This document shows positions 21,546 to 64,000 of a DNA stretch of 64,000 bases, piece by piece. The position numbers and the translations under genes were made by a program. The DNA is from Nemertoderma westbladi. Lineage: Eukaryota; Animalia; Xenacoelomorpha. The notes beneath the pieces are model-generated. The model had not been told where the DNA came from and did no database searches. It was given only the letters and a program-made list of their open reading frames with translations. The stretch spans positions 1 through 64,000 of the forward strand of contig JAUCBJ010002030.1 in the NCBI GenBank assembly GCA_032718475.1. The letters run 5' to 3'. How positions within the stretch are numbered: the first letter of the stretch is position 1; the number at the start of each line of letters is the position of its first letter.

Positions 21546-21722
21546 ATCGGACTTGGTTGTATATCGGAAACATGGTTGAAACGCCACATAGCATCAAAAT
21601 CAATACAATTATCAGGTTACAACATTGAAAGGCAGGATAGGAGAAAGAAGAAAGGGGGAGGTGTCTTATTTTACATACCTAGTGGCATTAAATACAATAC
21701 AAGGGGGGATATTAAATTAGGG

Positions 21723-38293: not shown

Positions 38294-38304
38294 CATATTC
38301 CTAC
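38294..38304 (-). promoter_or_regulatory. BEL-2 non-tRNA primer-binding site (putative self-priming)
   Basis: GTAGGAATATG abuts the 5' LTR and is exactly complementary to sense-strand CATATTCCTAC at 39342-39332 (3' LTR copy 22760-22750). Confidence 0.75.
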
Positions 38305-41127
38305 TAATGCGAAGAGACAGTAACAATACCTGCAATATCCTACTGTAAAGTTTGTGAATCAAATCATAAATCCGACCTTCTCACCAAACAGTAAACTCTA
38401 AGTAAGCGAATATATTGCAGTATCGATCTCTTATAACCGGTGAGGCAGAAAACAGTCTACGAGCAGACAAACTTCGATAAAACAAAATCCCGCGCAGCGA
38501 ATCCTAAAATCAGGCTGACTCACTGACGGACTAAAGGGCTCGTATACTTTGCCGCGGTGTGATTTATATGGTTGGGCAAAGAGACGCTAGCTAGGTACAG
38601 AGGCAGAGATTTGGAGATGTCTAACTAGCGGGCAAAACACAGTAAGGACGAAAGTTAATTTTATATATTTTGAGGTGTAAATAATTTCTAACGCGCGTGT
38701 GTTAATTCTGAACGGTCAAAAGCAGTTTTGCTCCTTCACATATATAATTACTGGGTACGGTGTGCATTTTACGAATATTCTAATTTTGTAACTTGTAGGT
38801 CCAATACTCACGAATGATAAGGTTCCTTCCCCTCTTGCGTATTTCCAGGACTCAAATTCAGGCATAAGGTTAATGCTATGCCCAGAATTCGGCAATTTTA
38901 ATTTACCAGGTCCCTAATACTAAGAAGAAATGTGTTAGTTTACTACAGTAGGCGTACGGTTACGAATAGCTATCCTGGCTCTTATCTAGAATTTTAGTCA
39001 CCTAGGTAGGCTGGGTAACTTCCTATCAGGACGTTGGCGGGGACACGGTAGATGTTAGTATATCCCTAATAGCCTCAATTTATTTGCGCCTAGTTGTAAA
39101 CTGCCCTACCGCCTGAACGGTACAATCCCAATTCAGGTGAAACACAGCAACCCTCCTAGCCTACAAGTTCTAATGCAATGGACACCATTGTACTGCAAAT
39201 AGTCGCAAACGCACCTGTACTTAGCAAGAGTTAGGCGTACAGTTTGCTGCACCCTACCAATGTGTATGCTTCGTACCGGCGTACCTACGTCCTATCTGCG
39301 TACTAGTATCTGCCTGCTCTCTCCCTCCCCCGTAGGAATATGAAGGTCTACTGTGGTTCTTTCCTGAATCAAGACAGTACAGTCCCTAAGATGTAATTTT
39401 AGGCTCACAGCGTGTCACTACTTCTACCTTTGATCTTTGGTCTTACGCTTAGGTAGCAAGGCGTCGAACGCTGTCTAACCTTTCAGGCGATGGGCGAATA
39501 ACTAAGGTGGTATTGCGGGTTGTCTCCTGTCTACATTCCCTTGATGTTCCCGTTCATTGCTGCGGCCCGATCTCTAGCCGGCCATCCTGTTCCTAAGAGT
39601 GTTCACCGTAGTGAATCATGGTGAAAAGAAAAGCAGATAGCAGTATTTCTGAATTTATTGCAGATAATAATACAAAATGTAATCTGAAAACTAATGACAG
39701 AATAAACAAGATTGAGTAACTAATAAGATTAGATAGATTGCACTGAGATTGATAACTAATGAACAAATCGCACCTTTATATAGCAAATTTGTGCTGCAAT
39801 CAATCGAGAAAATTCTCGATTGTTCTATAGGTTCTAACAGGTTTTTAAAGATAGCTATTGGTCCAGCTAATATATAACTTGCACGACATTGGATACAATC
39901 TAATAACTGCAGTCTCATTGGTTAATCTAGGTACAAACAAATGCAATGGAGCCACTCCACGAGGCGAACCGCGCGGCACTGCGGGCGGCCACAACAACGC
40001 CACTCGAGATCGCCCGTCTTAACGTTGTTGACGACCCGGTATCCGGTTGTTGGCTGGACGCTATTCCCATCAGCTCGCTAGGGCTGAAACTCACGGACTC
40101 CCAGTTCAGGGTTTCTGTCGCCACACGCCTCGGTTGCAAGTTAACCGAACCCCACAGGTGCTCCCGGTGCGGATCCGAAGTAAAACCGGATGGTCTCCAC
40201 GGACTATCCTGTGTGAGAAGCGCCGGGAGGCTGCCACGCCACTCTATGTTAAACGACATAGTGAAACGTGCATTGGCCTCCTGTGGGGTTAGAGCTCGCC
40301 TTGAACCGGTCGGGTTGTGTAGGGCTGATGGGAAGCGTGTCGATGGCGTTACCCTCGAATCGTGGAGTGGGGGCCGGCCGATGACTGGGATGCGACCGTC
40401 GTCGACCCCCTCGCTCCCAGTCATCTCGCCCAGAGCATGCAGGCCGGCCGCCATGTTGTCGAGGAGGCGGAAAACTCAAAGATTAAGAAATACGAGGAAC
40501 TGACCGTCCGAGGGAGCTACCTCTTCTACCCGGTAGCATTCGAGACCTTCGGTCGGCCCGGTCCTGAGACGGCTGCATTCCTTAAGGAGGTTGGCCGACG
40601 CCTCCACGCAGCCACTCAGGAGCCGCGATCCCATCGGTTCCTCCTCCAACGTCTCCTCGTAGCCATCTTGATCGGCAACACGGCCTCCATCCTCGGCTCC
40701 ATGGACCCTCTGTCCGACGGCCTCTACGACGAGGTTTTGTCGCCAGCTGCCCCCGCACCCCCCACTGACTCAGCGGGTTAGACTGATCTTGAACTTTTGT
40801 ATATAGTTAGGTAGGTAGTTTATATTAATTTAGTTAGTGTGCCTCATTGTGCTATAAGAAAATAATGCAATTTAATTTGTAGCGGTTAATTTAAATGAGT
40901 TGAAATTCTGTACAAAAAATAATTCGCACTTACTAGGATTCGAACTCAATACCTACTACACATATAATTTCCAACGCTCTACCGACTGAGCTACTGAACC
41001 ACTTGACTAAACGTCGTACAATAGATATAATAAATACAAATGAGGACTCAAAGTAATCTTTTACAAAGTTAATTCGAATAAAATAAAATTTTGAAAATCC
41101 ACGGCATTTAGGGAATATAATTCTATA
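38305..41127 (-). repeat. BEL-2 5' LTR (interrupted by CRE-like insertion)
   Basis: 2823 bp minus the 916-bp insert and 8-bp TSD equals 1899 bp, matching the 3' LTR. Confidence 0.96.
39948..40863 (+). mobile_element. 5'-truncated CRE-like (RLE) non-LTR retrotransposon
   Basis: Absent from the other LTR; 8-bp TSD AATGCAAT (39940-39947, 40864-40871). Encodes CSRC..DGLHGLSC, RHSMLND, DGKRVDG, WDATVVD, AENSKIKKY, FYPVAFETFG across one frameshift. Confidence 0.88.
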
Positions 41128-41209
41128 TAGGGAACAATAGCACTATACAACGAATAATAATAAAAGCAATACATGCAATTATAAGAAAGAAAATAAAAAA
41201 TATGACTCA

Positions 41210-43849
41210 TTGTGGATCAATATAGGCGATACTCTAGTAGGTGTATTCTACATACCACCACATGCTAATAATATTTGGGATGACCTGGCCGAGGAAATGG
41301 AGAATGCTACCAATGCATCTCAAAATGTCCTTCTAATGGGTGATTTCAATGTTAATTATCAATCCACATATGACCCCCAATCAAAAAATAACTCTGCATA
41401 TTATAAAAACAAGCAATTCCTGGAAATACTAACGACATACAACTTACAAATCCTAAATACCGAGCACCCCACTAGATATAAAGCAAAAACCAGCTCTCTT
41501 ATAGACATGTTCATAACCACCTCAAATAATACAGATAACTATATTGAATGCAATACATTTCCGGCTGACTTTTCCGATCACGAATTTATAGTACTGAAAT
41601 CCAAACAAGTAATTTCACAACCACCACAAAACACGAAACCAGTATATTCTACAGTTAAATTCCGCGATCTATCACATTTCAATGAATCTGATTTTCTTAA
41701 TGAAATTAGTAAAATTGACTGGACGAATAATTATTTTACAAGCAATGTAGATTACGTTTATGACAACTTCGAAAATAAATTTAATGAAATATATGATAAG
41801 CATGCACCAATTAAAACTAAATGCATACGATCTAGCAATAATATCAAAAGCAACTTGCACAACATATCACTATGGTGGAACTCAGAACTATCATCCCTAA
41901 ATATTGAAAAACAGCAAAAATTAATCAGGTGGAGACATTCAAAAAGTGAAAGTGACTTTGCAGACTATAAAACAATTCGAAATAAATTTAACTCACTAAA
42001 TAAAAACCTAAAGAATAAATATATAAAATCAAAACTAAATGATGCAACTGCAATAAAAGACAAATGGGCAATATTAAATAAAATCACTAATAATAATAAA
42101 AAAACCGAGCAAACTATATCGTCCTTAATTAATCACGCAACAGGCTCTATTATTTATAACATATTACCAATGGCGAACCTACTTAATGACACATATCTAA
42201 ATCTGGGTAACTTTCAAAGCACTGGCTATATAAAAAGACATTGTACTGTTCACTCTAGTTTCAGCTTTAAGAACGTAACCGAATTAGAAATATTTGAAAT
42301 AATATCTAAAATAAACACAAATAAACCAACTGGTCCGTCAATATTAAGTCCAAAATTAATAAAACTAATTGCACCGTATATTACCATACCACTAACTCAC
42401 ATCACAAACTTATGCCTAACGTCAAGCACTTTTCCTTCTCGGCTAAAATCAACCTTTATTACTCCTGTATTCAAAAAAGGGTCTCGAGATGAACCATCTA
42501 ATTATAGACCTATTTCTGTCACATCAACATTCGAAAAAATAATTGAAACAGTCATATATCACCAAATTACAAAATATCTACACAACAATAAAATACTACA
42601 AAGTAAGCAATTTGGTTTCAGAAAAGGGTATTCTACAGCAGACGCCGTTTTATTTGCAACCGAGTCTTGGAAACGCGAACTTAACGAAAAAAAATATATT
42701 GCTATTGGAGTACTAGATCTCTCTAAAGCTTTCAACTCCCTCCAGCACGACATTCTCCTAGATAAATTAATAGAAATTGGATTCCAATCGAATGCTGTTG
42801 CACTTATTAAAAGTTATCTTCTCGACCGCCCGCAAGCTGTAAAATTAAGCAAAATGTTCTCAGACTGGAAAATTTGCAATAGGGGTATACCACAGGGCAC
42901 CAAACTTGGACCATTATTGTTTTTAATATATGTCAATGACTTTGCAAATCAAATAAATTTGGAAACAATCCAATATGCCGATGACACTCTTATATATTGC
43001 TCGCACCCAAATGCACATACTGCAGTAAAACAACTAAACAATCAAATCACATATATTAGCCAGCTATTCGCAACACTAGGTATGAAATTAAACTCAAATA
43101 AAACAGAACTTCTTGTTATATCCCCATTAAAGAGAACAGACGAATTAAATAATCTACATCTTGTGCTTAATAATGACATAATTAAACAATCAACCACAAT
43201 TAAATATTTAGGCATCATCATAGATAACAGATTATCATGGAAGGACCAAATAAAAACTACTACATCTAAAATGGCAGCGGCCACATCCACAATACGCCAA
43301 ATAAAAGGACAATTGCCAATCTCTACGAAATTAATGTTATACAAAGCTCTAGTCATGCCGTACCATAACTACTGTAGTATCTTAACAGCGACATATAATA
43401 ATACTCACGGATATAAGGAACTACTGTACAAAATGGATAAGATTCAAAATTACGCACTTAGGCTAATCTATAACAAAAAAATACGAGAAACTTCAGGAAC
43501 AGAACTAAGACAATTAGCTAGGATCCCGCACCTTAACGCACTGAGAGAATACCACGCAATACAATATTTCTATAAATACATGTTCAACATTATCCCAGCA
43601 TTTAAATCATTAAAACTCCCGTTCATCAATCAAATATCACTATCTAATAGGCAAATAAATCCACGAACTAAAAAAATAAAAGTTCCAAAAACAACAAACA
43701 GATTTGGTCACAACTCTTTTATTGTCACATGCATAAAATCATGGAACAATTTACCTAATAACATTCGTAAATTTGCACTCAATAATAATTTTTTATCACT
43801 ATTGGAAAATTACTACATAACACAATATGAAAGAAAAGCAGTAACATAA
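41210..43849 (+). pseudogene. LINE ORF2 (APE endonuclease C-terminal part plus RT), CR1/L2 group; disrupted by BEL-2
   Basis: LMGDFN, SLIDMF, FSDHE, NYRPIS, QFGFRKG, LDLSKAF, GIPQGTKLGP, QYADD, KYLGI, SWNNLP. Confidence 0.93.
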
Positions 43850-44427
43850 TCACTTAACTATACATTATTATAAAAGTCAGGCTATAAAAGAAGGGAAGGG
43901 GGGGGGGGTGGGGTGGGGGGGGGGGGGGGGGGGCAAGTATGTAAGGTGCTTGTAATTTTTCGTGTTATTTTATCTATACTGTGTATTGATATTGAAGTAT
44001 GGAGTACGTGGATATTAGTTTTATTTATGCATGGTATGTGTGGGGTGTGCGGAAGTGCATGTTTATGCATGGGATGGGCTTGATAATACGGGTTGATAAT
44101 GCGATAGTACGTTAATAGTTTATGTATGGCTGAGCCTGGCCCATGCACGTAGTTTTATTTAACCATACACCATACAACTTTAGTTAACTAAGTACGGTTG
44201 TAATGTGTACAGTAAATATCTTATTCTATTGTTTAGTGTCGTATTATTTACAAATTATACTGTGTCAACACATACATAGAAGATGGACCAAGTCCATCCA
44301 GCCCGCTGACTTTGACCTTTTAAACTATCAGTTTAATGTGTAACTTCGGTGCCATTTCACTGCCTTTAGTCCAGCATGCTGGCTAAAGTTTTAAGGTTAA
44401 TATAATTGAATTTTGTTTGTTTTGTTT

Positions 44428-47400
44428 TGGTTAAACATGCCCTCTATATCGCACGTGAAGGCATGTTTTCCACTTCTAAACCTCAACAGAACCTCTATCC
44501 CCGAGTTGTAGATATTGGGGCCTTCCAGTAGGTAATAGTTTAGGCTCTTGCCGTTCGTCTTGGCAGATGTGTCGACCACCATTCTTAACTTGCCCTTCTT
44601 AGGGTCTAGAGCTACATGAAGTGGCAAATAGTAGGTCCTATCACTATTCGGCTCGTCCACTGGTAGTTCCACGGCCCATCCTTGATCCACATACTTCTTG
44701 ATGGTCTTGTGGGTGTAGTCGTTATTTTCGGGGCTCCGTCTAAGCGTTTGCTTTAATTTTCAAAGCCTTGTCATGACCATCCTCTTGTTGTCTGGTATGG
44801 GCACCTTCGGCTGCTTCCATACCATCCCTATGGTATATCGCCCCCCTCGCACTTTATCGAGTTCCTGACGCTCTTCTGCTGTTTGTCCGAGGCCGATACC
44901 GAGGTTCCCACCCCGGTATCCTTCAACCCCTCGAAGTCCTGCTGTAGCAGCCTCTTGAGTTGCTCCTCTGCTCCTTCATCCTCCATTTCCCTCATTGTTC
45001 CCGCGAACATGCACCCTGAGGATTCGGACACACTGAACGGGATTCTTGTCTTTATTGGGCCGCTGAGCGTCCATCCGAATTGCGTGAGAATGGCCACCGG
45101 GTCTTGCTCCCTTCCTCACCGAAGACGGTCTGTAGTCTCTCAGGGGCCATCGGACAGTCCATACTGACTATGAGAGACACTTTCGGGATGTCCAGTTCGG
45201 GTACGGAGAAGTTGATGTCGTCCAGGTACCGGTATTGCTCGATATCAATCTTTGTATGTCACCTGGCGTTAATGGTGATCAACTCTATTATTTGGATGGG
45301 TTCGATGGTAGCCCTATAGTCACACCCTGGTGTTATCGCTGCAATCTCGCAACGCCCCGTCCTCATCTTCATGACCTCATCTTTGCTGGAAATTGTGGTT
45401 ACCGCCATCTTACTTGGCCTTGTTTGTAACCCTATCTTTTCAGCCACCCAACTTTCCACTAGCGTGAATGCTGCTCCGCTATCAACCAGCATTAGCGTCG
45501 TAACCGATAGCTTGTTCTCCCCTATTATCCTCACTGGTACTACTCCGAGTAGTACTGTTCCCTTCCTCTTTGCTCCCATGGTGCTTGTCGCCATCGCCTG
45601 GCTTCCAGTACCATCAGTCTCGGCATATTTAATTGGTGCTTCCTGACATTCATCCTTTCTGTGTCATCCTACCGCACATTGATGACATAGTCCATTCTTA
45701 CCAGTATAGGCTATCCGATCTTGTTTAAGTCACGCCTGCCAATGCTTGCAGTCTATGTTCTTATGGGTCCCGTTTCTGTGCAATTGACATTTGTAATCGG
45801 GATTGTAGCATTCCTCATATAGCACATCGTGTATTGCATTTAGATTCATATCTAGCGGTTTGGTGTTTTGGTTGCTTGGACTCGGCCTACTGGGGGTATT
45901 GGTTTTGTATCTACTGGTGTTGTTGCTTTGTTTCTGTCCCTGTTTCTACTCCCAGCTCTCTGTGGACTTATAGTCCCCTGTGTGGCAGCATATGGTAGCG
46001 ACTGCCTCACCTTCGGTAGTGCATTAGCCACACTATGTTCGGGTTTAGGTCGGCTGTATTCCAGTTTCAGTACCTTGCCTAGACTGTCCTCACTATAGAC
46101 TGGATCCGTTATTAACTCCGCCTCGTAGTTAAGGAAGTTCGACATCTCCTCCAACCCTGGCTCCACACCCTCTTTATTTCGTGTGGAGAAAGCGATCTTT
46201 CTCCATTTATTCCATCTAGAGTCTTTAAGACTATTAGCGCTTTTTCTACTTTGTTAGCGAAAGTCTTTATGCTAACGGGGTTATCTGCGAGTCCGCGTTC
46301 GCCTGCGTTTCCTCCTGCGCAACCGCGCGGCCTTGTAGGCCCCCCGCTAGGCGAATTACCTGTTTCCCCAACGTTTGTATTAATTATACCGCCACTAGCC
46401 TCACCCTGTTGATTTATTACATTACTATTTAGATTATTTTGATTAATTTCACCGGGATTATTTATTATATTGTCGTTTACTGTACCACTACTAGCATTAT
46501 TTAAATTATTTTGGTTATTCGGTGCATCAATATTTACATTATTATTTATTAAAACATTACTTCCTGCAAGAAATGTCTTATTAGTACCAGGGGTTATCTA
46601 CTACGGTATTATTAATGTTAACGTTTTCATTGAACGTATTGTCGTTACCCCCCCCCCCCCCCCCCCCCCCCCGTCCGTCCGGTCACACCAGTTCTGGGAC
46701 CTGTCGTCCGGTACCTGTAAGTGGGGTATTAACAAAGGTTTCCATCACCCCTGGTTCCTCATAAATACTTCCCGAACCAGCCTCGCTCTCTGCTACACCC
46801 ATTTTCGCCAGTTCTAATCAGCGTTTTTGCTTCGCCTGATACTGCATTAACCCACTCAACCAGGTATGCATATCATCCCGCATTCATTTACCCACCCTGT
46901 CTCTCTCTCTGTCCTCTCTAATACTCTGATCAGCTAACTCCGCCGCCCTCGCCTCTCGCTCTCTACCCTCGTTCATCTCTCTCGCCTCCTGCTCTCTGTG
47001 CTAGTTCACTTCTCTCTCAATCCTCTCAGCTCTCCTCGCTTCCTGCTCTTTGCGCTCATTCTCTTCTCTCTCAATCCTCTCAGATTTCCTCGCTTCCTGC
47101 TCTTTGCGCTCATTCTCTTCCCTCGTCTCTCACTCTTTGCGCTCATTCTCTTCCCTCATCTCTCGCTCTTTGCTCTCACTCATTTCTCTCTCATCACGTT
47201 CTCTATAGTTTCTCGCCACCCTCTCGGCCCTCTCTTTACACTCTCTCGGTAGTTGCCTTTCCCTTTCTAGTAACGCAGTACCCTCTAGTCTCCAGTCCTC
47301 CAGTCTCTCTAGTTCCTTTTGGTCTAGCGCGACTATGTCTAGCTGGCACGCCAGATCTATTTCTAACACCCTTCTTGCTTTCGTGGAGGATGAAGCGGAC

Positions 47401-47722: not shown

Positions 47723-47727
47723 TACAA

Positions 47728-48869
47728 TGTTCGCGCTTTTAGACCTTTAGCAGTTTAACCTGCCAATTTTAGTTGTGCTTTTGTTTATAAATCGACTTTA
47801 GCCTATATAAATTATTTAGTGTACTGAAATTACATCAGCCGAAGCCAGTCTGTGCGCGACCATTCACCCACAGTTAAGGGAGACTGGATTCGGATGCTTT
47901 GATAGTGATTGCGGTGTAGACCTACTGTATTATTCGATTGATCGTTACTATATAATCTCTGACAATATATTTACTTTCGGGGAAATATTAACAGTTCCTT
48001 TAGGACGTGGCGCTTTAAGTATAAAAACAGAGTTATGACTTATACTAATCACAACTAGATGGCCACTACTGAGTTTCGTAAAAAGCGCATTCTTTAGGAG
48101 ATGCTTATTACTTCACACTACTTCACACTGACTTCACACTACTTCACACTGAATCTGCCGACCATCACTGAATTTGATCATATATAAGGAGGATCGCAAC
48201 TGACACATGTAGGGATTATGAAATAGCATTTAATTCACACAAAAACCACTATAATGTAAGTCGCAGTTGCTACCGGTAAACCTGTTCCTCTCACCTTCAG
48301 TAATCAAGAAGATTGGGGGTTTTATGATTATTCATTGGTATTCTCCAAATATATCAGCAATATACATCAATATCACAACAATTAATAACAGAAGTAAAAT
48401 AATGCGGTGAACAGTCAGTATGTGTTACTTATGCAGTGTTCCATGTGCAGCAATGTTATGCAGTGTGTCGTTCGTGATTCAGATTGGTGATCCAAGTCAG
48501 TTAATAGTTTTACGTTCTTGTAATCAAAGCCATCAGATGTTTAGGCCAAAGTCTGAAACTTCCACAACAGAAGTACAGAATAACTCTAAGCCGGTTCTCT
48601 GGCTCAGAAAGGTAAACAAATACCGTAATGCATTGCGCGGTTTTCCATAGGCCCCTGTCCAACATAAAGTGAAAATCGCTCTGATTGGCTGAGCAGAACA
48701 AAGAGGTTCCACGTCTACAGGAAATCAGCTGACAGATTTCGTCATCTGAGCTCCAATCTTTTAGAGTATTATGCGCATTGCGGCAAAAACGACTTGTTAT
48801 GTCCGCTAAAGCACCTACACTGCGCATTGCGGGGAAAAATGACTTGTTATGTCCGCAAAAGCTTTTACA
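47728..48869 (-). repeat. BEL-3 3' LTR
   Basis: Direct repeat of 59334-60489 with several substitutions and indels. Confidence 0.95.
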
Positions 48870-48947
48870 CCGCTCCCAGAAAATGGGATTTAATTCTATA
48901 AAATATAAAAAATCACAGTTTCTAAAATATAAAAATACTCTAAACAA

Positions 48948-51151
48948 TTAGTCCTTCTTACGTGAACGGCATTTACGAAGTTTTTTGAGGCTAGCAAGAG
49001 TCCTTTTCTCTTTGGGGCGAGCCACTTTACTAGGAGGGCTATAACTCCTGGGTGAGGGGTGCAATACAATTGCATCGGAAGGTTTAGGGTTACGGTCGGT
49101 GTATCCGCCGGTCGAGGTACCCGGTTGATCGATATCAACCTCAGTGGAACGAGGTCGAACAACCTTTAGAGCGCGTTTCAGGACAGCAGCTCTTACTGGT
49201 CCCTGAAGGTTCGTTTGCACGAGAGCGGTAGGTTGACCGTGAGTAGTGAGAAATTTCCTCGGTTTGATGGTTCTTTCCAACTCGCGTTCTCTGGCTTTAT
49301 ATTCATATGGTTGTCTATGAACTTCTTGTATCTCTAGATACGAGTTTATGAACAAGTCACCGTGGAATTTATCAATGGTAGAAACTTTAAACTGTATGTA
49401 GGATCTTCCGGTTTCGCCATATAATATTGAGTTAAATTGACATAATAAGGGTGGTCTTTGATCCCATAAAATGAGTTCGGTAAAGGTCTAGCGCGTAGGT
49501 TGACCTCGTGTACCATACGACGGACAAGATCCGCTCGATTGTCCGGAGGTTCAACGAGTATACCGTCGACACGAGTGGCCTCGATTGGCGGACGTTGTAA
49601 CATAGGAGCGTCAGCGATAAGATCTCTAGATCTTAGGTTGATATCAACCGGTTGGGGTTGTACCGTGGCGAAGAGTTTGTCTCCGAAATGGGGAACCATT
49701 GAAGGATGAATAATGTTTTTGGAATAGAGATCAGTCATAAGGATTTGAGCTTCTGGCTGGGCTAAAGCTGCTTCTTCTCTCTCGTCCATTTCGATATGCT
49801 TCTCCTCGAGCTGATTTTCCTCCGCTTGTCGTTGGAAGCGTTCGTCCAAAAACTCTTGCAGAGAGTAGATTCGTCCAAGTTCGATGTCTTCCTCGAGATT
49901 CTGGAATTCCCGATCAAACTGGGGTAAAGCTAATTCTTTTACCGCTTGGACTTGCCGCTGCAATTTACGTTTATCTAAACAATCGTAAGTTCCTCTTCCA
50001 ATCTTTTGTCGAATAGCGTCTAGCGCGTTTCGTACAACGCTCTCCTCCACCTCGGTGACAGGTTGTATCGGGGTTAGACCGGGACGATTATACGGGTTGA
50101 ACGGCGATATTAGGTGTCCGCGTCCCAATCCGGCTAGGTAAGATGGGCGAATATCTAGGGAGCCCACAACCGGAGTGCCACCGACTAATTGTTCTGGTAA
50201 CACTAGATCTTTGAACAATGAGTGCAGTTCAGGAGGATCCGTCATACTATTAGGATCAAGAGTCTGAGGTCTCACCAGGGAATGGGGATGTCTGACCGAG
50301 TATTCCGGAACTCTGATCATCGGTTTATTTAAGGATCGTTTGAGTCGAGCGAGCGTAGGTGATACGTCGAACAAGTTTCGCTCGAAACTCCCGTAAGTAT
50401 AGCGAGTAAAACTGTGTTTAGCGCAACGTCTCCGCGGATGTTTATGTCTTTCCGTTTGTTGGTTGGGTCTAGGGCATTCATCGCAATAATACCAAAGACG
50501 CACGTCTTGTAGGGGAAACGCGGGTGATCTTTCTCCAGTTTTACAATATTCCTCCATCTGTTCGAAGCTATCCGGTACAACAGGTAGCGGTCGATCGGCG
50601 GTAAGATACATCATAGTGAAATAGAGTCGTTTGAGTTCTATCATAGGGTCATGATGTATACCTTGAGGATATCGAGTTTCTAGATTTTGTTGACTGGCTA
50701 CATTGAGATATGTTTCTCTCAAGAATTCCAGATATTCGTTGAAGTCACTGCGTTTATCCGGCTCTTCAACGTCTTCTCTTTCGAGTTGGTTTCGAATAGA
50801 ATTTTCGTGTTCGATTCTCAGTTTATCGTTCCGACTCCGCTGGGTATGATATTTAAATAGGATCATTTCCCTTTCGGTGTCTACATCGTCCGTATCGTGT
50901 AAATCGATAGGATGACCAGTAGTTAAGAAGTCCATATACGTACCATTACGATGCGTATAGCGAGCGGTGAATTTTCTATAGTCCAATTCACGCGTGAGCT
51001 GTTCCTTTGACATTGGCGGTTCGATATAATGGCCATCGTCCTCCGTAGTAGGTTGACTAGCGTCGCCGCGTATTAAACTATCAACAAACGCTTGCAAGGG
51101 TAGGGTATATCGCTCCCTGATACCAAGATCATCTTCTATCAACTCAGTCAT
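48948..51151 (-). CDS. BEL-3 ORF3 (601 aa, 51151-49346) with an overlapping -1-frame extension to 48948
   Basis: Long ATG-initiated ORF in the env position; shares DP..E..RLY.TM.YL.A..P.P.V.D.F..M..Y...CxxC...RCxxH...RY..G with BEL-2 ORF3. Confidence 0.8.
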
Positions 51152-52918
51152 AGCTGCTATATGAGTTTATCAATATTATAATTAATCATAATTTAGGCTA
51201 GCAGTCGTCGCTGCCTCCCCCTCAATGCCCCCGGACAGCGCAAGCTCCTCAGCGCTGATGTACTGTCGCCGCTGTGCCTCTCGCCAACGTAGTAGCTACA
51301 CAACGACAACAATAACCAGCGCGAGTCACTCCACTGTCCGTCCCAAGGGCTCAGAATTACTTCAGGTTCTTGCTACAGAGGCAGGGTAACTTTCACAACT
51401 GCGACTCGCTACTGTAAACACACTTTAGTAGTAACATTCACCTATAAACGCACAAATTCCACACAACTGTCACAAATTGTACACATTCGGGCCATTTGTC
51501 CGTTAGTCAAGTGCCTTCCAGAATGCCACGTTATTATTATGTATCCCTGGATACTAGCAGTGTGCTATTTATTCCGTATGCTATTCAATGGGGTAAGCTT
51601 TCTATTGTTCTTTTAACTCGCTTCTAATTCTAGCGTGGTTGTTGCAATGGTGACATTATGGAAAGCTAGCAGTAGAATTAGGGAAATTCTCATGCATACA
51701 GATCTGGGATGCTATTTAATAGTAATTCTTTAATTGTCAATATTCCCCTTTATACATGATTTTATGAATTTTATCGGCTATTGACTAGATATTGGAGATT
51801 CTCGCACACTAATATACTTAATAGGGTGAATCTCTGCTCCCATGATCTATTAATTAATGGAATTTTGGGAATGTTATAAATTGTATAAAATGACAATTTA
51901 TCAAAATCATGAGAGGATAAGAATTTAAATTTATTCCCGTAAATTTTATTATTTAATATTAAAATAGACACAATTTTACTCCAGAACATGTCTGTCTGGG
52001 GACTAGGATCCTTAATTCTAGGAAATTTGTTTTTTTAAGAGCATCGGTAAGTGCTACGATATCTTAATCGACTAGAATTTTTAAAGGATCTGAATTTTAA
52101 CAGATTTTGATTTATAGATTTTTTTGGTTTACAAACTCCTTAGAGTTTATTTGTCTGCATTTACTCTATTATAACATTTGTTTTAATAGATTTTTATAAA
52201 TATTAAATAGTTAATATTTAAGATGGGCACCGATTTATTCCAGAACTTGTCTGGGGACGTTAACCACTGATTCTAGAATTTTGTCTTTCAAGTATATCGG
52301 TGGGTGCCGCGATATCTTAATCGACTAGAATTACAGATGGTCAAAGGGTTTAACAGATTTATTTTGCGTTTTACGCTACTGTTAAAGGGACATCACGCTA
52401 CTATATGTATTATTTAATATACGGCATGAGAGCAATATTGCAAGAAGCAATGTCAGTGAGAAGAGGCAAGTCGTTTCCAAGGTCTACCCAGAGCTTGGTT
52501 TAGCCGAGACACGAGGATCTGAACTTTGCATTCCTAATACTCTACTTACCAATAATACTTGAGTATAGTAGGAGCTTTATTGTACTTTAATAAGTACGGA
52601 CATTTCATCTTACTGTAGTCACGTATTTATAATATGATACGGACAGTAAGGAAAGAGAAAAATAATTATTTCTCGCCGTTGCACTAAATATATAATGTTA
52701 AGTAATTAAGTAATAAACACGGGTATATATATTGCACTAATCTACTAAATATTCGCCAAAATAACATTCTACTAAATAAAATTAAAGAAAACGATTATAA
52801 TAAAATTATATAATAATACATACATAAATATAAAAATAATAAAAAAAATATAAAATACTATAGTCACACACCCACTCCAGACGCTGTTACGTTGGGGAGT
52901 CCCTAGATGTTGGTTGGA

Positions 52919-55900
52919 TTAGGGAGGTGGTCGTGGGAAGAGTATCTTGCCTTCCATAGTTTCCGGACAGTTCTCGGTCTCTTTCCAGTAAACATAAACG
53001 ACCAACTGGGCGATTGAGTTGTTGTGTTTCGAAAACAATTCCAGGTTTCTTCTTCGTCCTGGAATAGTGATGATGGAAACACCGGTGAGGAGGTCGATTG
53101 TGTTTTCCTCATCGTATAATTGAGTAATATCGTCATTATCTGAGGAGTATGGTGTTCTCTCAGTTGTGGTTTCTCCCTCACTTATTTCTTCTTCCCATTC
53201 ACTCACCTGATGTATCCTCTCTTGAGGGAGTCTTTCCATTAGTGTTCTACGGGAAGGTCCAGTGAAGTACCAACCTACTCTCGTTCTTCCCGCGTATGTT
53301 TGTAATGGTTGCGGTCGAGCAGGCCGTTTTTCTAATGTCTCAAGTGCCTCATGCGCATTCTGGCCGATTAATATCTGCACCCCTGGGTAGTCGGTGTTGA
53401 ATCTAGGGATATCATGCTGCTGGGTAAAATGGTCTTCATCCCAGTTGTAAGGTTCCACTTGGCTGGTAGCAAAGTTCTTTATCGCCACCATTTTTACTGA
53501 CCTTATGCTATGTTCTCCTAGTTCATCCTGGGGAGTGGACAACACACCCACATAGTAGTCTGTAGCTATTGTGGATTTCCAAACCTGCATAATTCCTGAA
53601 AGGTTCAACTTAGTTCGGAACTTGGGTTGTCCAGCAAAGATGTCTTCGGCTAGTTCTTTGTCGATGAATGTACCTGTGCTGCCGGAGTCAAGGAGGGCGT
53701 TTACTATTAAACTTTTCTCTAGTCCGTGGACTCTCAGCTGCACTACAGGGAATTCCCGGATTCCGACGTTGGAAGTTGGCGCTTTCCAAGTTGGTTGCCG
53801 GTCCGGAATAGTCAGTTGATTATCGGTTTCAGTCTCATACGTAAGCACTCGATACACTGCGGTGTTTATCATATTACAGGATTCGTTTTCGTCGGAGAAT
53901 TCGTCTGTGTAGAATCCTTCCATCTCAGAGCTGTGGTCAGTGTCGTTCACATCACTGAATTGGACATGTAGTTCGGGCTCACTTACCTGACTCGTGCGGG
54001 TTTTGTCAAATTCTGTGTGCAGCAAGATGTGATGTTTCGCGCCGCACTTAGCACACCTAGCATCTGAGTAACAGGTCCGCCGTTGATGTCCTCGTCTGAG
54101 GCAATTATAACACAACCGCTTATCCCACATGACATCACGTCTATCCTTAAGGGATTTCTTTAAGAATTCATCACACCCACTCAAGCGATGGGACCCGTCA
54201 CACAATACACATTTAGGCTTGATGTTACTTACTTTAACCTGTGCTGTGTGGTGCACACTTGTTCTTTCCTCAGGCTTTCTTCCATGAATTCTCTTAGGAG
54301 ACGTAGGAGGAGTTGTTGTTACCTGTTCTCTCCTGTCACTGGTTCGAGACTTATATTTACTTACGTCTTTCTGAGTTTTGTTGACATAATAAGAACTTTC
54401 GGTGTCTTTCCCGCTGTTCTCCTCGTGGGAGGTCTGGCTTTCGCCATCGTCTGTATAACACACTGGTGTTACCTTTCTCCTAGAGACGGGTTTTTCACTT
54501 ACCTTACTTTCAGGAGTCTTCTCTCTAGACTGTTTTAGGAGTTGTAATCTTACCTCTCTGTTTAAGAATGACAGAAGGTCCGTCATGGTTGGATCTCTAT
54601 GTTGTTGGTCCATCAAATAGAGAACCTTTTTGTCCCAGCGAGTACCTACTCCACCCTTTGGCAAAGTTGATGCTAAGGCTCCTACAACCATAGAATTCTG
54701 ATATTCATGAGACTTACCTAACCAATCTAGTTGTCTACAGATCTCCTGAATCTCATCGGAAAACTCTATAATCCCGCTGCTAAGGAACTTTCGGGGCGCT
54801 ACTAATTTCGCATACAAATACCTAGCTATGTTAGTCCTATTACCATACCTGATGTTTAGTGTATCCCAAACTTGTCTTAATCCATCTGGATGTCCAATAA
54901 ACTTTAACGCCATTAACTTGGGAGGTCCTTCCAAGCACTCAATGGGGAATCTAAGTTTCTCTCCGTTAGATAGTACGGAGTTCTGTATGTTATCTTTATA
55001 ATATTCATTAAAAGGTAACCATTTCATCTCATCTCCATTGAACTTGACGACCTCTCCCACCTTTACCGTTGACGGGCTTCGGTTCTAGCCATTTGACGCG
55101 TAAAACTTTCTTGGGCCATCGTATTATTTAATATCGAGTTATCAGTATATAAATTTCTCGGATTATGATCAGGTCTATATGGAATATCATTATCAACAGG
55201 TTTATAATTACCCCCAACAGGGTTCACCACAGGAGTTTCTACTTCACTAGCAGTATAGATACGTGTAGGCTCCACACCTTGCGCATGAAATACTTCAGAC
55301 CTAACAGGTTGACACATTGTCACAGGGGGTGGTGGTATACCCAATTGTATATTTACTAATTTATCGCGTTTTAACGCGATACTCTGCTGCACTTCTTGCA
55401 ACTCTAACCTACCCTCTCTTACTGTTCCCTTTAACTGCTGAACAGTCCCTTCCAACTCCCGGACCTGCTGGGAGGAACATATACGATGTTCCCTCAGCTG
55501 CCCGAGCAGGAGACCCATCTCCCGCCGTCCCTCATCCACCCACTCTACCGCCGAAGCGGGAGCCGCCAACATAGTAGCGGGTAGACGAGGGACGACGGGT
55601 GACAAATTGTTGATGTCTTGCTCGGCATCCAGGACCGGGATTGATTCAGGGGCTATTCTACTGGGCACAGGTAGTTTAGTACTGTGCAAAGGGAATTTAG
55701 AGTTAGGTTCTGGAAGTACAGGGGTCTCTATCACAGAGTTAGTGGCTCCGAGAACAGGCCTAATTATTTCAGGCTCATCTACTATAGTAGGGAGTCTTTC
55801 TACTCTAATAATTTGGTCTGTAGGCTCAGGATTACTTAAATCTACACTAGCTAGTTGCCTTCTCACTGCTGGAGGCAAATTAGGCAATTTCTGCCGGTGC

Positions 55901-57444
55901 AGCGCCCTTCTACGTCCACTGGAACGAGATTTATTTCCTCTACCTTCAGGATCTGTTGTATCGCCTTCATCAGAGGATGTAAATCCCTGTCTCCTGGGAG
56001 TAGATCGACTTAGCAACTGCATCTGCGTAGCTGTCCTTTGTTTCTTCAAGTAATCGTGTTTCGCCTGAAGGTTCTCCAGCTCTAGTTGGGTAGTCGCTTC
56101 AGAAGCTTTCAGTTCTGCTTCTGTCACTGCCGCTTTCCTTTCAGATTCTGCCGCTGCCGCTGACGCCTTTCTCTCAGCCTCTGCCTCTGCCGCTTTTGCT
56201 GCTGCTTTTCTTTCAGATTCCGCCGCTGCTGCTGACTTTCGGTCTTCTATTTGCCGTTTCTTTAATTGTTCTTCTTGATCCATTACCATGAGGATGCTTT
56301 CATCAAATTTAGCCTGCTCCGCGGCTAATATTTCCGCATCTAACGAGTCCAACACAAATTTGGCCCCTTCACTATTAGGGTGAAGTCCAGCTAGCCGTCT
56401 CCTTAGCTCTTTGTCACCTATGAATCGTTGATAGTCCGACAGATAGATGTCAATAGCATCCTTCTTCTGAGGTTTCTCTGATATAGCTTCGCTTTCCACC
56501 TGAGAAAAGGTAGCATCTGTTGACTCTCCGTGGGTCATGCGCTCGGTTAGCTGAGCTTTCCATTGTGTCGTTCCCTGGACTTTAAGACTCACCCATTGGA
56601 ACCAAGTTTTTACGGCAACTTGCAACGACGTGTCTTGGCTTCTCTTCGAAGCTTCTTCAAAGGCCGAAAGGTTTAGTCTGATCCGTAAAATTCGTTCTCG
56701 CACTTGATAAAGCAGCTCTCCCTGCTCTTGAGGTCCTTGACGTTGTTGAAACAGGTGTTCCTCTAAGCGCTCCAAAGAGCTGAAGAATCCCTGGACATAT
56801 CCCGCTGCCGACCTCTTCCACACAGCTGGATCTCGAGTGTCTCTTACTACTCCCATCCTGTATAAGTCCTCCCAAGCAGCTTCCGATACGTTAAATGGAA
56901 GTCCAGGTCCGGGGAAGTTCCATTGCGTCTCGACAATAGACCTTAATTCCTCCATCGTATATCCCGCATAACTGTCCTTGGTCGATCGCTTACTTCTCGC
57001 CCAATCGATTTGATGTTCTTCCACCGCAATCAATACTCTAGTGAGTACAGCTCCAGGAAGAATTAGAAGTGGATCTGGATAAGCCACTTCTGCCATCCTT
57101 GCTCCGATTTCGGGTGTCAACTGTACAGTGTCTGAACTACTGGAGTTATCGGGCTGTTGAGAAATAAGTTCTCGGTTCGGGTGCTGCTGCTGTTTAACAG
57201 CTGCCTCTTGGTCCCGCTTGACTTGAGCCCTAGTGCCTATGATATACCCATGGTGTTTTACTAGCCTAGGGTCTGACACTACTACTGTAGGGATGACCTT
57301 TCTTACAGTAGGAGGGGACTTGGACTTTGGTCTCAGACGTTCTATACTCTTAGCTGAGTCCCAAATCTTTGTAAGACCCTGTCTAACACTCATTCTAACA
57401 CTTTCTAAGAGACTATCTGACAGTGTTTGTTTTGTGTCAGACAT
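52919..57444 (-). pseudogene. gag: BEL-3 gag-protease with one frameshift at about 55063
   Basis: ORFs 57444-55063 and 55060-52919 join as ...ARQR(L)KVGEVVKFNG if one T is restored. KFNGDEMKW, three knuckles (CVLC, CYNC, CAKC), ALLDSGS; ends before RT. Confidence 0.88.
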
Positions 57445-57574
57445 GATTTATTTTACAGTTGAATGCCTACTACTGTAACGACAGTTAAAGCAAGTCTAGT
57501 AATTCAGTATCAACTGTAAGCCTCGTAATTAATTACCGATACCGTTACTCAGTGTAACATGATATATATAATTA

Positions 57575-57830
57575 ATATTAAAATACCGGTATACTTATAG
57601 TATATATATAAGTATTATTACAGACTAGAATTAGTTACAGAATACCGGTATATAATTTCAGGCTAAATTTATATAAATAAATATAATAAGCCTACCGTAA
57701 ATACCGGTATACACCTATGGTATATATAAGTATTATTATAGACTAGGATTAGTCACAGAATACCGGTATATAATTTCAGCCTAAATTTATATAAATATAT
57801 ATAAAAATCCTACTTTGAATACCGGTAATG
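57575..57830. repeat. About 118-bp tandem duplication with ataccggta motifs in the BEL-3 5' UTR
   Basis: aaataccggtatac...tatatataagtattatta...cagaataccggtatataatttcag occurs twice. Confidence 0.75.
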
Positions 57831-59321
57831 TCAATTATTTTATAATAACTGTATTTCTGAATTTTTAGGGTTACTTCCCTTTACTTATTACTGTTATTAA
57901 GCAGTAGTTCAACTGATATTAAGACCTAATGGATGTATAACAGGCCTACTATTTTATAAATCGGTTTGAGTTGATTTATAATATATATATATACCCGTAC
58001 AAGGGGTTTTGTCAATGTTTGAAATAAATGTTATTATTTCTGGGTAAGGTGTCACTACACAAAAGCTGTTCGCTCTCAGTGGAGTGCTACTTGATGGACA
58101 CTAAAACGAATAATTCTACTTTACTAAGTTACTTATCACTAGAAATTACTTACAATCACAGTTTGAGACTACAATCTCTAAATAAACACTAAAAAGTTAC
58201 ACATACAAGTTTTAGGGTAATTTTACAAGAAATCTACAAACCAGCCTAACAAGGAGTTAGAATTTCTGGTTCTTACAAACTGACAGGATACTACGGTATT
58301 TGAAAACAATAAAGCAGTAGTAAGTAAATTGCGTTGTCCAGATAAGAAAATACCACCGTCTGACGACTTATAGTCTTAGCTCTATAAGTACTACGTTATG
58401 TATCCGGAGTGTCCTTACCTAGAAGTTAATTACTGCAGCCAACCAGAGCTAACATGCCTATTAACCACTTTACAACACAAATATACTGCCTATACACTAA
58501 TTACTTTCAGAAAGCACTGTACACTAAACCCTAAATTAGGTACAAGTACTTATACAACAAATAACCAGCAGTTAAATATACTTGAACAGCTAAAAGAACC
58601 ACGGTATCTGCTGGAGTGACCGGAGCACAAAATCACCAGTCTTTACCTACGCCAAGCAGCCCTGATGTAGTACTGGGGTTAATTTAACTATAACGGTATG
58701 TATAACAAACACAATTACTGTAGTAATAAACTTGGGGGTTGTAGGTTGCGAATACTCGCATAGACTCTGAATAATAAATATTACGCTACCCGTGCAGACT
58801 ATACAAACTAAATACAGACCAAATGCTGGCAGACTACTGGCAAGCCTAAATAAACTACAGTATATGCAGACTCCGAAATGGTTAGTTAGTAGGCGTTCTA
58901 ACCGAGTAGTACGACTTATTCTTTCGGGGAGGATTTACCTTACAGCACTGGATGCCCCCACCTTCCTAACTAGCACTTTATCGGACAGACACTCTATACA
59001 CACTGCAATCGCTTCAGACCTAACAACAGCTAGACAACAATCCGGCCTACAAATTATTTGTACAATCTGAGCAGGCTTACACGCCTTCTGCTCAATATTA
59101 CAACTTACAGATAAATAAAACTGACAGAAATAAGTAAACCATACAAAGGAATAAGGGGTGATCAATCCCTAATCCCCTAACAGCCTACAATATACAATAT
59201 ATCACAATCTAAATAATACTGGTACCTGTAAGTACCGGTTCGGGTAGTTTAGGCAGTTAGGCCTACAGTTTACCATCCGACTGGTACATTTGAATTTATT
59301 GCCTTCGTGCAATCAAGAGTT

Positions 59322-59333
59322 TAAAACTATTAA
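59322..59333 (-). promoter_or_regulatory. BEL-3 non-tRNA primer-binding site (putative self-priming)
   Basis: TTAATAGTTTTA abuts the 5' LTR and is exactly complementary to sense-strand TAAAACTATTAA at 60133-60122 (3' LTR copy 48512-48501). Confidence 0.75.
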
Positions 59334-60489
59334 TGTTCGCGCTTTTAGACCTTTAGCAGTTTAACCTGCCAATTTTAGTTGTCCTTTTGTTTATAAATCG
59401 ACTTTAGCCTATATCAATTATTTAGTGTACTGAAATTACATCAGCCGAAGCCAGTCTGTGCGCGACCATTCACCCACAGTTAAGGGAGACTGGATTCGGA
59501 TGCTTTGATAGTGATTGCAGTGTAGACCTACTGTATTATTCGATTGATCGCTACTATATAATCTCTGACAATATATTTACTTTCGGGGAAATATTAACAG
59601 TTCCTTTAGGACGTGGCGCTTTAAGTATAAAAAACAGAGTTATGACTTATACTAATCACAACAAGATGGCCACTGCAGCACTGAGTTTCGTAAAAAGCGC
59701 ATCCTTTAGGAGATGCTTTATTAACCTTCACACTACTTCACACTACTTCGCACTGATCTGCCGACCATCACTGAATTTGATCATATATAAGGAGGATCGC
59801 AACTGACACATGTAGGGATTATGAAATAGCATTTAATTCACACAAAAACCACTATAATGTAAGTCGCAGTTGCTACCGGTAAACCTGTTCCTCTCACCTT
59901 CAGTAATCAAGAAGATTGGGGGTTTTATGATTATTCATTGGTATTCTCCAAATATATCAGCAATATACATCAATATCACAACAATTAATAACAGAAGTAA
60001 AATAATGCGGTGAACAGTCGGTATGTGTTACTTATGCAGTGTTCCATGTGCAGCAATGTTGAGTTGCAGTGTGATGCGTTTCAGTGATTGAGATATGAAG
60101 TATGATTCAGCAATGTTTCAGTTAATAGTTTTACGTTCTTGTAATCAAAGCCATCAGATGTTTAGGCCAAAGTCTGAAATTCCACAACAGAAGTAGAGAA
60201 TAACTCTAAGCCGGTTCTCTGGCTCAGAAAGGTAAACAAAGACCGTAATGCATTGCGCGGTTTTCCATAGGCCCCTGTTCAACATAAAGTGAAAATCGCT
60301 CTGATTGGCTGAGCAGAACAAAGAGGTTCCACGTCTACAGGAAATCAGCTGACAGATTTCGTCATCTGAGCTCCAATCTTTAAGAGTATTATGCGCATTG
60401 CGGCAAAAACGACTTGTTATGTCCGCTAAAGCACCTACACCGTGCATTGCGGGGAAAAATGACTTGTTATGTCCGCAAAAGCTTTTACA
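59334..60489 (-). repeat. BEL-3 5' LTR
   Basis: tgttcgcgctttt...gcttttaca, matching 47728-48869. Confidence 0.95.
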
Positions 60490-60494
60490 TACAA

Positions 60495-60926
60495 CTTGGG
60501 CTGGTCTACCTTTCCTCCCTCTCTAGTGTCCTTTAACAACTTCGTGGTGGTGTTGTACCCTCGTCGCAGGCGATCGCCCATCCCGACGTTTTCCTCCTGG
60601 ACTTGACCTTCCCTCCTTGTCCGGCGCCGTACCGTCGGCCCCTCTGTTGCCGTTCCGGTGGGCCAGTCGCCGCCCTCTGCCACTGGTTGGCCAGGGACTC
60701 TGGTACCTCGTTCGCCGATGTGATCTCGCGTTGACTCGATCCCCTCTCCTCCTCGTACTCGACCACTCTCCTCCTCAACTTCCGGAGCGTCCCTCGATGG
60801 CGAATCTGGTGTGGCGGGCCTGTAACGCCTCATCGCTGCTTCCCGAATTGTCTGGTCTCTGTTGCTCGTGGTTCGCGGCGGGCTCGCTTCTCCCTCTGGA
60901 CCCTGTGGCTGTTGTTCGCTCATCAT
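60495..60926 (-). pseudogene. Probable BEL-1 gag N-terminus
   Basis: GC-rich ATG-initiated frame cut exactly at the BEL-3 TSD; the sequence resumes at 47722 into gag-like fragments. Confidence 0.6.
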
Positions 60927-62504
60927 TGGCGTCGTGTGTCGTTACAGTTTATTTTTCTTTTGATGGGCATTGACCTGGCTTTTAACACAACGGTTTTTAA
61001 CTGCGAAGGGATTCGCTAGTTGGCGAGGGAATCCCAACCAGATTTGATCGCCTTTGGACTATAAGCGTCGCCGCGTCCGTGGACTGCTGAAAGGCTGGTG
61101 TAGTGTCTGAGTTCTAAAGGCCGAAGGCCGTTTAAATATCTAAGTTCTAATAGCAGTTGTTTGCAATGTTAGACTATAATAATAGCACAATCAGAATATT
61201 ACAGCACGGTAAATGACGACGGTTAAAAACCGTTCCGGTCTCACAACTCTACAGATACCAACTGAATCATAATCAATAAGTACAACGGTTAAATTACTAA
61301 CACATATTAGTTACTCCCACTGTTCTGAGTGGCCTGGCCAATGGATGCGTTCTAATCACCTGTTTTCCCCTCCCATCATTGGCTAACCTAATTAATCTCG
61401 ATCTCGCCTGTAGCTAAAGATTGAAAGCAAAAATAAAAATTCTGGCTCACCTAGCAAGGAGGAGGGAGGTGAAACTATCTCTGTTTCAAATTTCATGCAA
61501 ATCTCATTAAGATTTGTAGAAAAAGGTTTTTTTCTTTGGGGGGGGGGGGGGGGGGGGGGGTAGCAGGTACCTGAATAACGACACTATATTCCAGGACATG
61601 GTGTAAGTACGTACATTGTACAGTAAACAGGTATGTAGGCCTACTAGTACTGTATAAGATACCGGTACCTTTTGAACGCCCGCTTTTGTTGTAGTTGAAT
61701 GTGGAACGCGTCTTTTCTCCCAAATTGTCCTTTTTCATCTGCAAAAGATTATTTACTATGACATTATGATGTAATACATTACATGTATTATTCTATAGTA
61801 CATTAACTGTTAAAATAATTCCCGTACTACAGGTTAACAATAGGAGTGCATTATAGGATATTTACGTTTATTAATATAGTCAAGCCTAACCATTTGATTT
61901 ATGGCACTCCAATAAGCGACTCTTTCTTGTAATAAACGTTTAACCGCGACAATTTGTCCTGAATTTGATAATGTTGATTTCTCATAACTTTCATCTGAAA
62001 ATAATAATTCACATTAGTTATTGTTAAGAAATTGTACACAGCAATATTACAGTACTATAGACTTTGGTAATATAATTTTATCGCTCAGAAAATCTCTTAA
62101 TTTCTCATGACTTCGCAAGCAGTATACACCTACAGTAGACCTTCTTAGTCTTCTTCCTGTATTCCTGGATAGCACCGATGGGACCCCTTAACCCTTTGTT
62201 GCACTTGTTGATTTTAAGCAACAGTTCTATTATCGGTCTTATCTCATAGAAAACCATCAACCAACCATTACTGCACCTTGTAGCTAATAGTAGGATAATT
62301 AAAAAAAAATACTAAAAATACTAAAAAAATACTAACGTACAGTATTTCCTTATATATCCTTCACTTATTACATGCATTTTTGCAAATATACAGGTTTATT
62401 TGCAATTCTAAGGCACAAAATAAGCCGTGTTGCTTATAAGCAACAGAGTGCAGTAAAGGAAAGTAGTGGAAAATGGAACTGAACTGTGAAATTAGATTTT
62501 CCTT

Positions 62505-63160: not shown

Positions 63161-64000
63161 CCTAAAGCCTTATTGTTTGTCACATCTAAGTAATTATTGA
63201 TTGTTATAGAAAGACAGACAGAAAGAGTATTTAGAGCTAATTAATGATTTAATTAGATTAATTATTTAATAAGTGATTAGGCTAATTATTGAATTAGGTA
63301 ATTAAATTACTTAGGTAAATACATTATCGCAGGCAATTTATGGATGGCATCGCATGGCATCTATACTCCCTTTGGGGAGTAGATATGGTGCCGTCACCAG
63401 AGGTGGTGTAAAAGCTTTTGCGTCATTAACCGGTTATTTTACCTTAAAGTACTCTGTAGTTGGTTTGCCAGGCATAAAAAGGCCGTGTCCTTGCTGTACT
63501 GGTGTTTTAGAGGACATAAAAGTCATTTCTTCTGTATTTGTACTGTATTTGTACTTTAGAGGACATAATCCGCAATCTCGTGACGCGATAAGCTGGATAC
63601 TCTTGAAAACAGTGTCGCTACCATGACGACGGCTAACAGCTGATATTGCCACGTCGACGTTTCTTTGTTTCTTTGTTCTCTCGTTGTTCGGTTGACCAAT
63701 CAGAGCGTTTTTTGTCTCTGTGTTGGAGGTGTATACAGAACTCAGTAGTTCAGTGTGTTATGTTTTTGCTCAGAGCCTAAGAACATCGGCTTTTAGCACT
63801 TCCGTATATCAGCGTTCTTTAGCTTTACATTAGTAGGCTTAATTATAGAACGTATATCTGTTATCGAGTTAATTACAACCTATTTACTACATACAATCTA
63901 ACCAAACCAATTATATGCAATTCATATCTTACATTACTGCTTTTGCTGTTGGTTATTCGTTATATTTGTTGATGAAATATTATATCGGAATACTGATCAA

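Follow-up and report, generated by a model that had tools for sequence, protein, structure and literature searches.

BEL-2 and BEL-3, two retrotransposons on the minus strand of the window (the whole stretch of 64,000 nucleotides of Nemertoderma westbladi DNA that was analysed), carry beside their 5′ LTR a primer-binding site (PBS) that is complementary to a segment of their own LTR. We consider it likely that both elements prime their own reverse transcription, this stretch of LTR RNA folding back, being cut and replacing the tRNA. That the primer derives from the LTR, by whatever route, we regard as very probable.

Two nested BEL/Pao elements

The minus strand of the window carries nested BEL/Pao elements, and all features of BEL-2 and BEL-3 given below lie on it. 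Both elements, together with a LINE ORF (41141-43849, RVT_1), sit within a decayed BEL element, BEL-1 (about 17500-61400), of which fragments are found at 19142-21500, 44400-45700 and near 60500-61000; no second LTR of BEL-1 was found within the window. Outside this region, the window holds inverted-repeat elements at 401-2063, 4652-8809 and 6801-8740 (region 400-9900) and a 20-nt tandem array at 13029-13900. No tRNA genes were found in the window, and an Rfam search gave no match.

In BEL-2 (21723-41127, about 18.5 kb) the frames of gag, pol and ORF3 are open. The LTR edges of this element, set independently by a TAGGG duplication (21718-21722 and 41128-41132), read TA..TA and not TG..CA; the relative L039 likewise ends in TA. 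The 3′ LTR (21723-23621, 1899 nt) and the 5′ LTR (38305-41127) show 7 differences over 1899 aligned bases, and the 5′ copy is interrupted at 39948-40863 by an unrelated insertion of 916 nt, with an 8-nt duplication and no Pfam match. Gag (DUF1759; 34366-37509) lies in the same frame as pol (28900-34365), across one TGA; this single TGA, followed by CAA (34363-34368), is a candidate site of stop-codon readthrough. Pol is open and encodes protease, RT (YVDD), RNase H (PF05380, E 2e-42), integrase and DUF5641, with matches to PF17921 and PF18701 and motifs in the order PR-RT-RH-IN. Its best relatives are about 43% identical, and the named ones come from molluscs, cnidarians, echinoderms, tunicates and fish.

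BEL-3 (47728-60489) is flanked by a TACAA target duplication (47723-47727 and 60490-60494) and has LTRs with TG..CA ends, of 1156 nt on the 5′ side (59334-60489) and 1142 nt on the 3′ side (47728-48869). Gag is split across two frames, the first at 55063-57447 and the second at 52919-55084, where the gag end (DUF1759), zinc knuckles, protease and a trace of the integrase tail are found. The protease runs into this trace, and nothing is left of RT, RNase H or the integrase core; without RT, BEL-3 cannot be placed by this protein and would be copied in trans. An ORF3 remnant (49346-51166) is 31% identical to BEL-2 ORF3 (133 aa, E about 1e-9).

The similarity between the two elements is confined to protein (23-31% in gag, protease and ORF3), and PF03564 (DUF1759) is found in gag of both (E 7e-11 and 2e-10). 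Judged by their proteins, BEL-2 and BEL-3 are BEL/Pao elements and not members of Tf1/sushi. The BEL/Pao traits found are the domain order (in BEL-2), a gag with DUF1759 and CCHC knuckles, and LTRs with a short duplication and a polypurine tract (PPT). Membership in Tf1/sushi (chromovirus Ty3/gypsy) was considered and rejected on the Pao-type domains and the lack of a chromodomain match.

ORF3 of BEL-2 (24511-28356, 1281 aa) has three CCHC knuckles and no membrane segment, and an env assignment was rejected (top 19-residue hydropathy 1.38 and 1.06). Across residues about 490-760 and 906-965, we observed CCHC knuckles and a motif spacing like that of WRN/EXD DEDDy exonucleases. Profile matches to the WRN and EXD2 exonuclease domains are weak (E 0.07 and 0.13), and an Atlas match to PF01612 is under threshold (0.83). 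Word-based searches gave no match, three remote relatives were identified, and structure models had mean pLDDT values of 31 and 33. It is possible that ORF3 carries a DEDDy-type exonuclease domain, which we offer as a lead only.

The PBS of each element pairs with its own LTR

The BEL-3 PBS (59322-59333; sense 59333-59322, TTAATAGTTTTA) is flush with the LTR end. Its 12 nt exactly complement 60122-60133 in the 5′ LTR (LTR positions 358-369) and the second copy of this segment in the 3′ LTR (48512-48501), at the coordinates given in the preliminary description; the complement is found nowhere else in the window. We refer to 60122-60133 as the putative self-primer segment of BEL-3 (duplex -8.8 kcal/mol). 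The 11-nt equivalent claimed for BEL-2 was confirmed as well: its PBS (38294-38304), also flush with the LTR end, pairs with a putative self-primer segment at 39342-39332 (LTR positions 862-872) and with the 3′ LTR copy at 22760-22750, in letters unrelated to those of BEL-3 (duplex -13.7 kcal/mol, extended -19.9 kcal/mol). The reported spacing of about 0.8-1.0 kb corresponds to distances of 773 nt in BEL-3 and 1027 nt in BEL-2 between the 3′ end of the primer and the end of the LTR. The LTRs of the two elements, said to be dissimilar, gave no LTR-LTR match (blastn, word 7, E<1). As also described, GGAGCGG adjoins the 3′ LTR in both elements with zero spacer (23622-23628 in BEL-2; in BEL-3 the PPT is GGGAGCGG, 48870-48877).

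The BEL-3 12-mer had been flagged as AT-rich and weak evidence when taken alone, and a composition-matched check proposed. In dinucleotide shuffles of the LTR, a match as long at offset 0 arose 11 times in 20,000 for BEL-3 and 9 times in 20,000 for BEL-2; allowing offsets 0-3, the counts were 21/20,000 and 44/20,000, respectively. When the anchor was moved along the leader, at least 12 nt paired at 0 of 950 positions in BEL-3, and 11 nt at 4 of 745 in BEL-2. Exchanging the leaders between the two elements left 5 nt of pairing, and the shuffles and this swap together answer the caveat. A longer spliced primer was not found in BEL-2 or BEL-3, the best spliced matches (6-9 nt) being shorter than the contiguous ones.

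A third LTR, kin of that of BEL-3, lies at 63407-64000 (+), with its first 16 nt identical and a variant PPT adjoining. In its counterpart of the primer (63853-63864), 4 of the 12 positions are changed, the 8 nt round the 5′ edge are kept, and its predicted PBS does not lie within the window.

Relatives pair with their own LTR, mostly across a predicted splice junction

The RT-RNase H region of BEL-2, aligned with 22 homologues, served as the query for relatives, from which we took 7 loci on genome contigs and the best 80 of 543 on metagenome contigs; many of these come from few record series, which limits the breadth of hosts. At 85% RT identity there were 52 families, 15 of them testable (LTR end observed, 3′ copy running into unlike flank); the other 37 of the 52, with no LTR end observed, were left out. 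Contiguous and GT-AG-spliced matches were scored at offsets 0-5, the latter requiring a canonical donor and an acceptor rich in pyrimidines. Nine families had already been inspected when this splice filter was defined, and four of five independent families tested later passed it as set.

Repeating the test on relatives, as had been suggested, gave 10-15 nt of pairing with the own LTR in 14 of 15 families, compared with 9 of 1,650 displaced anchors (10 nt). Twelve of the 14 pair only across a splice junction and two contiguously (L005 and L023). With a looser acceptor filter all 15 families pair (displaced-anchor null 13/1,650), the addition being L019, with 11 nt across a junction. The partner thus exists only across a GT-AG junction inside the LTR in 13/15 relatives, L019 included, and is contiguous in BEL-2 and BEL-3. 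Cross-family swaps gave 4-10 nt, except among L017, L020, L022 and L081, which were counted as one because of their common PBS core.

The preliminary description had spoken of natural covariation. Between BEL-2 and BEL-3 the pairing is parallel and not column-wise, and it is not true covariation since their LTRs cannot be aligned; the term is better deserved by L002 and L003, between which two primer positions have changed, each along with its partner in the PBS. In one copy, L026, a PBS change is uncompensated, which we count against self-priming. A tie between this trait and ORF3 was rejected: own-LTR pairing occurs in the relatives and ORF3 is absent from 15/15 families, only 78-783 nt separating the integrase end from the 3′ LTR. 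Since none of the families has room for ORF3, own-LTR pairing is independent of it.

A quick IQ-TREE reconstruction (45 RT rows of 400 aa or more, SH-aLRT only) grouped the contiguous L023 with the spliced L063 (100%) and placed the contiguous L005 beside the spliced L002 (87%). Because contiguous primers fall among spliced ones in this tree, changes between the two forms seem to have happened several times over. BEL-2 forms a long branch (2.0) outside the 44 relatives, and its position with respect to the tested families is unsure, a further point counted against self-priming. Complete BEL elements with paired LTRs, namely L002, L003, L004 (one record series) and L005, were met in bacterial genome bins; these are likely contamination by host DNA, and the 7 loci on genome contigs probably have the same source.

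We lean slightly towards a wider reading, in which a large aquatic branch of BEL/Pao would have wholly given up tRNA priming. In most of its families, the host spliceosome would join two LTR exons into the primer, splicing of the 5′ LTR would license reverse transcription, and the 3′ LTR would stay unspliced. BEL-2 and BEL-3 would then be intron-less, blunt-ended forms belonging to a deep, exonuclease-carrying lineage, and spliced and contiguous primers would have been switched several times.

A proposed fold-back primer and its cleavage

In the self-priming mechanism that we favour, the RNA would begin not far upstream of the pairing segment, and its 5′ part would fold onto the PBS via this 11-12-nt LTR stretch. 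The RNA would then be cut where the stretch ends on its 3′ side, as in Tf1 probably by the RNase H of the element, giving the 3′-OH that primes minus-strand DNA. The first strand transfer would adjoin this cut, and the cDNA ends would need no trimming in zero-spacer lineages.

A second helix upstream of the primer is enriched (0/5,000 permutations; combined own-LTR p=3e-5, 14 independent rows). In BEL-3 it is predicted to form between 60137-60141 and the leader at 59314-59318, after a 3x3 loop (extended duplex -15.3). Taken alone, this helix is weak in BEL-3, being equalled by a fraction of 0.138 of own-LTR 14-mers; in BEL-2 (0.041) it is modest. The helix suggests an RNA start at least 10 nt upstream of the primer. 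In folding predictions for RNA of 0.9-1.2 kb, which are fragile over such a range and hang on the assumed RNA start, the pairing probability was about 1 for starts 10-30 nt upstream (0.76-1.0 in BEL-2, terminal pair apart), about 0.2 for a start at 0 in BEL-3 and close to 0 in either element for a start 60 nt upstream. No TATA box was found near the primer of BEL-2 or BEL-3. A CCAAT box lies about 175 nt upstream of the BEL-3 primer, so the RNA start could lie well before this primer.

The two BEL-3 LTRs are identical through the primer, and a variable block (60062-60121) begins right after its 3′ end: 17 of the 44 differences fall in these 60 nt, representing one replaced block and not independent events, and 2 in the 60 before. 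The family is very abundant among contigs from other individuals. Of their 32 joints, 15 are listed, and six of these end at 60114-60121; one contig, with a depth of 3,384, spans 60123-60489. Over 58700-60700 (runs X1/X3), contig depth across the leader and the downstream LTR half of BEL-3 is about tenfold that across the upstream half. This picture suggests abundant BEL-3 subfamilies with different U3, contig depth not being copy number. The BEL-3 PBS and primer show no variant among the 40 variant rows listed (there are 367 further rows). Error-prone strand transfer at a template end is a behaviour of retroviruses and Ty1. A first strand transfer beside the cut would explain the variable block, which by this analogy fits transfer at a template end that cleavage would have made; alternatively, the block fits selection on a primer that lies beside a labile tract.

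The loop to be closed by the fold-back is long, 773-1027 nt in BEL-3 and BEL-2 versus 44-360 nt in relatives, and we count this against self-priming, together with the start-dependence of the folding and the TATA and CCAAT results given above. Loop length and the start-dependence of the predicted folding would both be accommodated if the helix were real and selected but the primer were a separate RNA acting in trans, and not a fold-back cut by the element RNase H; the candidates are an LTR transcript that is short or spliced, the other genomic RNA in the dimer, and a piece made by a host nuclease. A trans primer also agrees with the relatives, most of which form the partner only by splicing, yet must keep the same intron in the 3′ LTR copy. 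The same can be said of predicted introns that would drop the PBS from the gag mRNA (59897 to 59121 in BEL-3; donors 38811/38523/38384 to 38063 in BEL-2), which combine LTR splice donors downstream of the primer with a strong leader acceptor. Primers in cis and in trans are indistinguishable from sequence data; the trans route, however, adds a step of which there is no direct sign, and priming in cis has a precedent in Tf1 (PMC7175516). We therefore regard a trans primer as unlikely and retain the fold-back.

Terminal spacers and the identity of the putative priming site

Of the 15 relative families, 12 have a PBS offset from the LTR end by 1-5 nt; in the other three the offset is 0. This offset goes with the PPT spacer: among 14 independent rows, both were zero in 5 (BEL-2, BEL-3, L023, L055 and L063), both were present in 9 and none was mixed (Fisher p=0.0005), with the PPT 3′ edge in L023 and L063 set by hand; counting one row per clade gave 3/0/0/9 (p=0.005). 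By retroviral logic, such symmetry is expected if the paired stretch is the minus-strand start and integrase trims both ends or neither. The matched spacers support a real priming site, and by the same logic lineages would differ in whether integrase trims both ends or leaves both untouched. The preliminary description had linked self-priming with blunt cDNA ends. Zero spacers at both ends together do fit a lack of 3′ processing in zero-spacer lineages, but bluntness is a lineage trait that backs the identity of the site and is no part of self-priming. The likeness to Tf1 drawn on this point is inexact, as the Tf1 primer is reportedly not removed, according to the title of one study.

Could the helix instead be structural or regulatory, serving packaging, a dimer switch or site masking, with priming by an unrecognised tRNA half or another host RNA? 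No TGG was found in the first 8 nt of the PBS in BEL-2, BEL-3 or 15/15 relative families, and half-tRNA primers without TGG exist in copia lineages (PMC6317226). The 17 sites, however, differ widely and each follows its own LTR, and a priming host RNA would need to fit every one of them as well. The paired stretch also starts exactly where spacer symmetry sets the start of DNA synthesis. We find priming by a host RNA quite improbable.

The presence of the same 12 nt in the 3′ LTR (48501-48512) would allow the RNA 3′ end to act as the primer with no cleavage. The poly(A) hexamers argue otherwise: none lies in the 40 nt before the primer end in 17/17 LTRs, one lies downstream of it in 13/17, and the first in BEL-2 and BEL-3 is 248-267 nt downstream. 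These positions would place the primer segment near the 5′ side of R and not at the RNA 3′ end. Spliced families would, moreover, lose the 3′ intron from their progeny, and we judge this route very improbable. Finally, chance or a one-off inverted duplication without function, which an AT-rich 12-mer and the many windows scanned might invite, is largely refuted by a probability of about 5e-4 per element in two elements, by 14/15 families against a 0.5% null and by the compensated changes, and it deserves almost no credence.

Probable self-priming in BEL/Pao and its known counterparts

We conclude that self-priming is the best reading of these elements. The pairing with the own LTR that replaces the tRNA site is non-random and general in the group; the earlier interpretation is borne out in part, and there are differences from Tf1. 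If the wider reading is true, a whole branch of BEL/Pao self-primes, a third independent origin beside Tf1/sushi and the predicted TAR copia elements, and this would bear on whether tRNA priming or self-priming came first in LTR elements, a question raised in PMC3601003. It would also explain why PBS finders miss these elements and provide a simple annotation rule. Self-primed elements might lie beyond control by tRNA fragments, and in the spliced relatives reverse transcription would be coupled to splicing by the host. For a direct test, BEL-2 and BEL-3 offer the simplest substrates in their contiguous primers.

The titles and abstract openings of the literature searched held no report of self-priming in BEL/Pao; most subscription papers, as well as Repbase and GyDB entries and supplements, lay outside this search, and an earlier mention is possible. 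Term searches of PMC3118150 and PMC554778 turned up neither PBS nor tRNA. The ICTV describes Belpaoviridae as having an 18-nt PBS for tRNA-Arg or tRNA-Gly, LTRs of 0.2-1.2 kb, genomes of 4.2-10 kb and an optional env, and their replication as poorly understood (PMC8742986). The elements studied here agree with this family in gag (DUF1759), the PR-RT-RH-IN order, PF05380, DUF5641, a 5-bp duplication and a PPT before the 3′ LTR. They depart from its description in having no PBS for tRNA-Arg or tRNA-Gly, a feature of the ICTV description and not a phylogenetic criterion, in LTRs of 1.14 and 1.9 kb, in the length of BEL-2 (about 18.5 kb), in an ORF3 without membrane segment and in the TA..TA ends of BEL-2.

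In Tf1, the first 11 bases pair with the PBS, and the RNase H cleavage falls between bases 11 and 12 (PMC7175516). Self-priming has been proposed for Tj1 of S. japonicus (PMC4600332) and predicted for Tcn1 and TAR (PMC6317226). Like Tf1/Tf2 of Schizosaccharomyces pombe, Tj1 and Tf1/sushi elements (Tcn1), BEL-2 and BEL-3 have no tRNA site, and about 11 nt of their own LTR RNA complements the PBS next to the 5′ LTR (PMC7175516, PMC4600332, PMC5341516); they most likely work like Tf1. Unlike Tf1, they belong to BEL/Pao and not to Ty3/gypsy, their loop is 0.8-1.0 kb long, and most of their relatives need splicing to form the partner. The upstream second helix is a further difference, suggesting a start 10 or more nt upstream where Tf1 uses its first 11 bases. 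RNase H cleavage, shown for Tf1, would by analogy take place in BEL-2 and BEL-3. A parallel outside Ty3/gypsy is offered by TAR (Houba, Osr-1), Ty1/copia elements of plants for which self-priming was also predicted from sequence (PMC6317226). TAR differs in its copia affiliation and its plant hosts, and in that the available part of the same source describes no splicing step, the step on which most relatives of BEL-2 and BEL-3 would depend.
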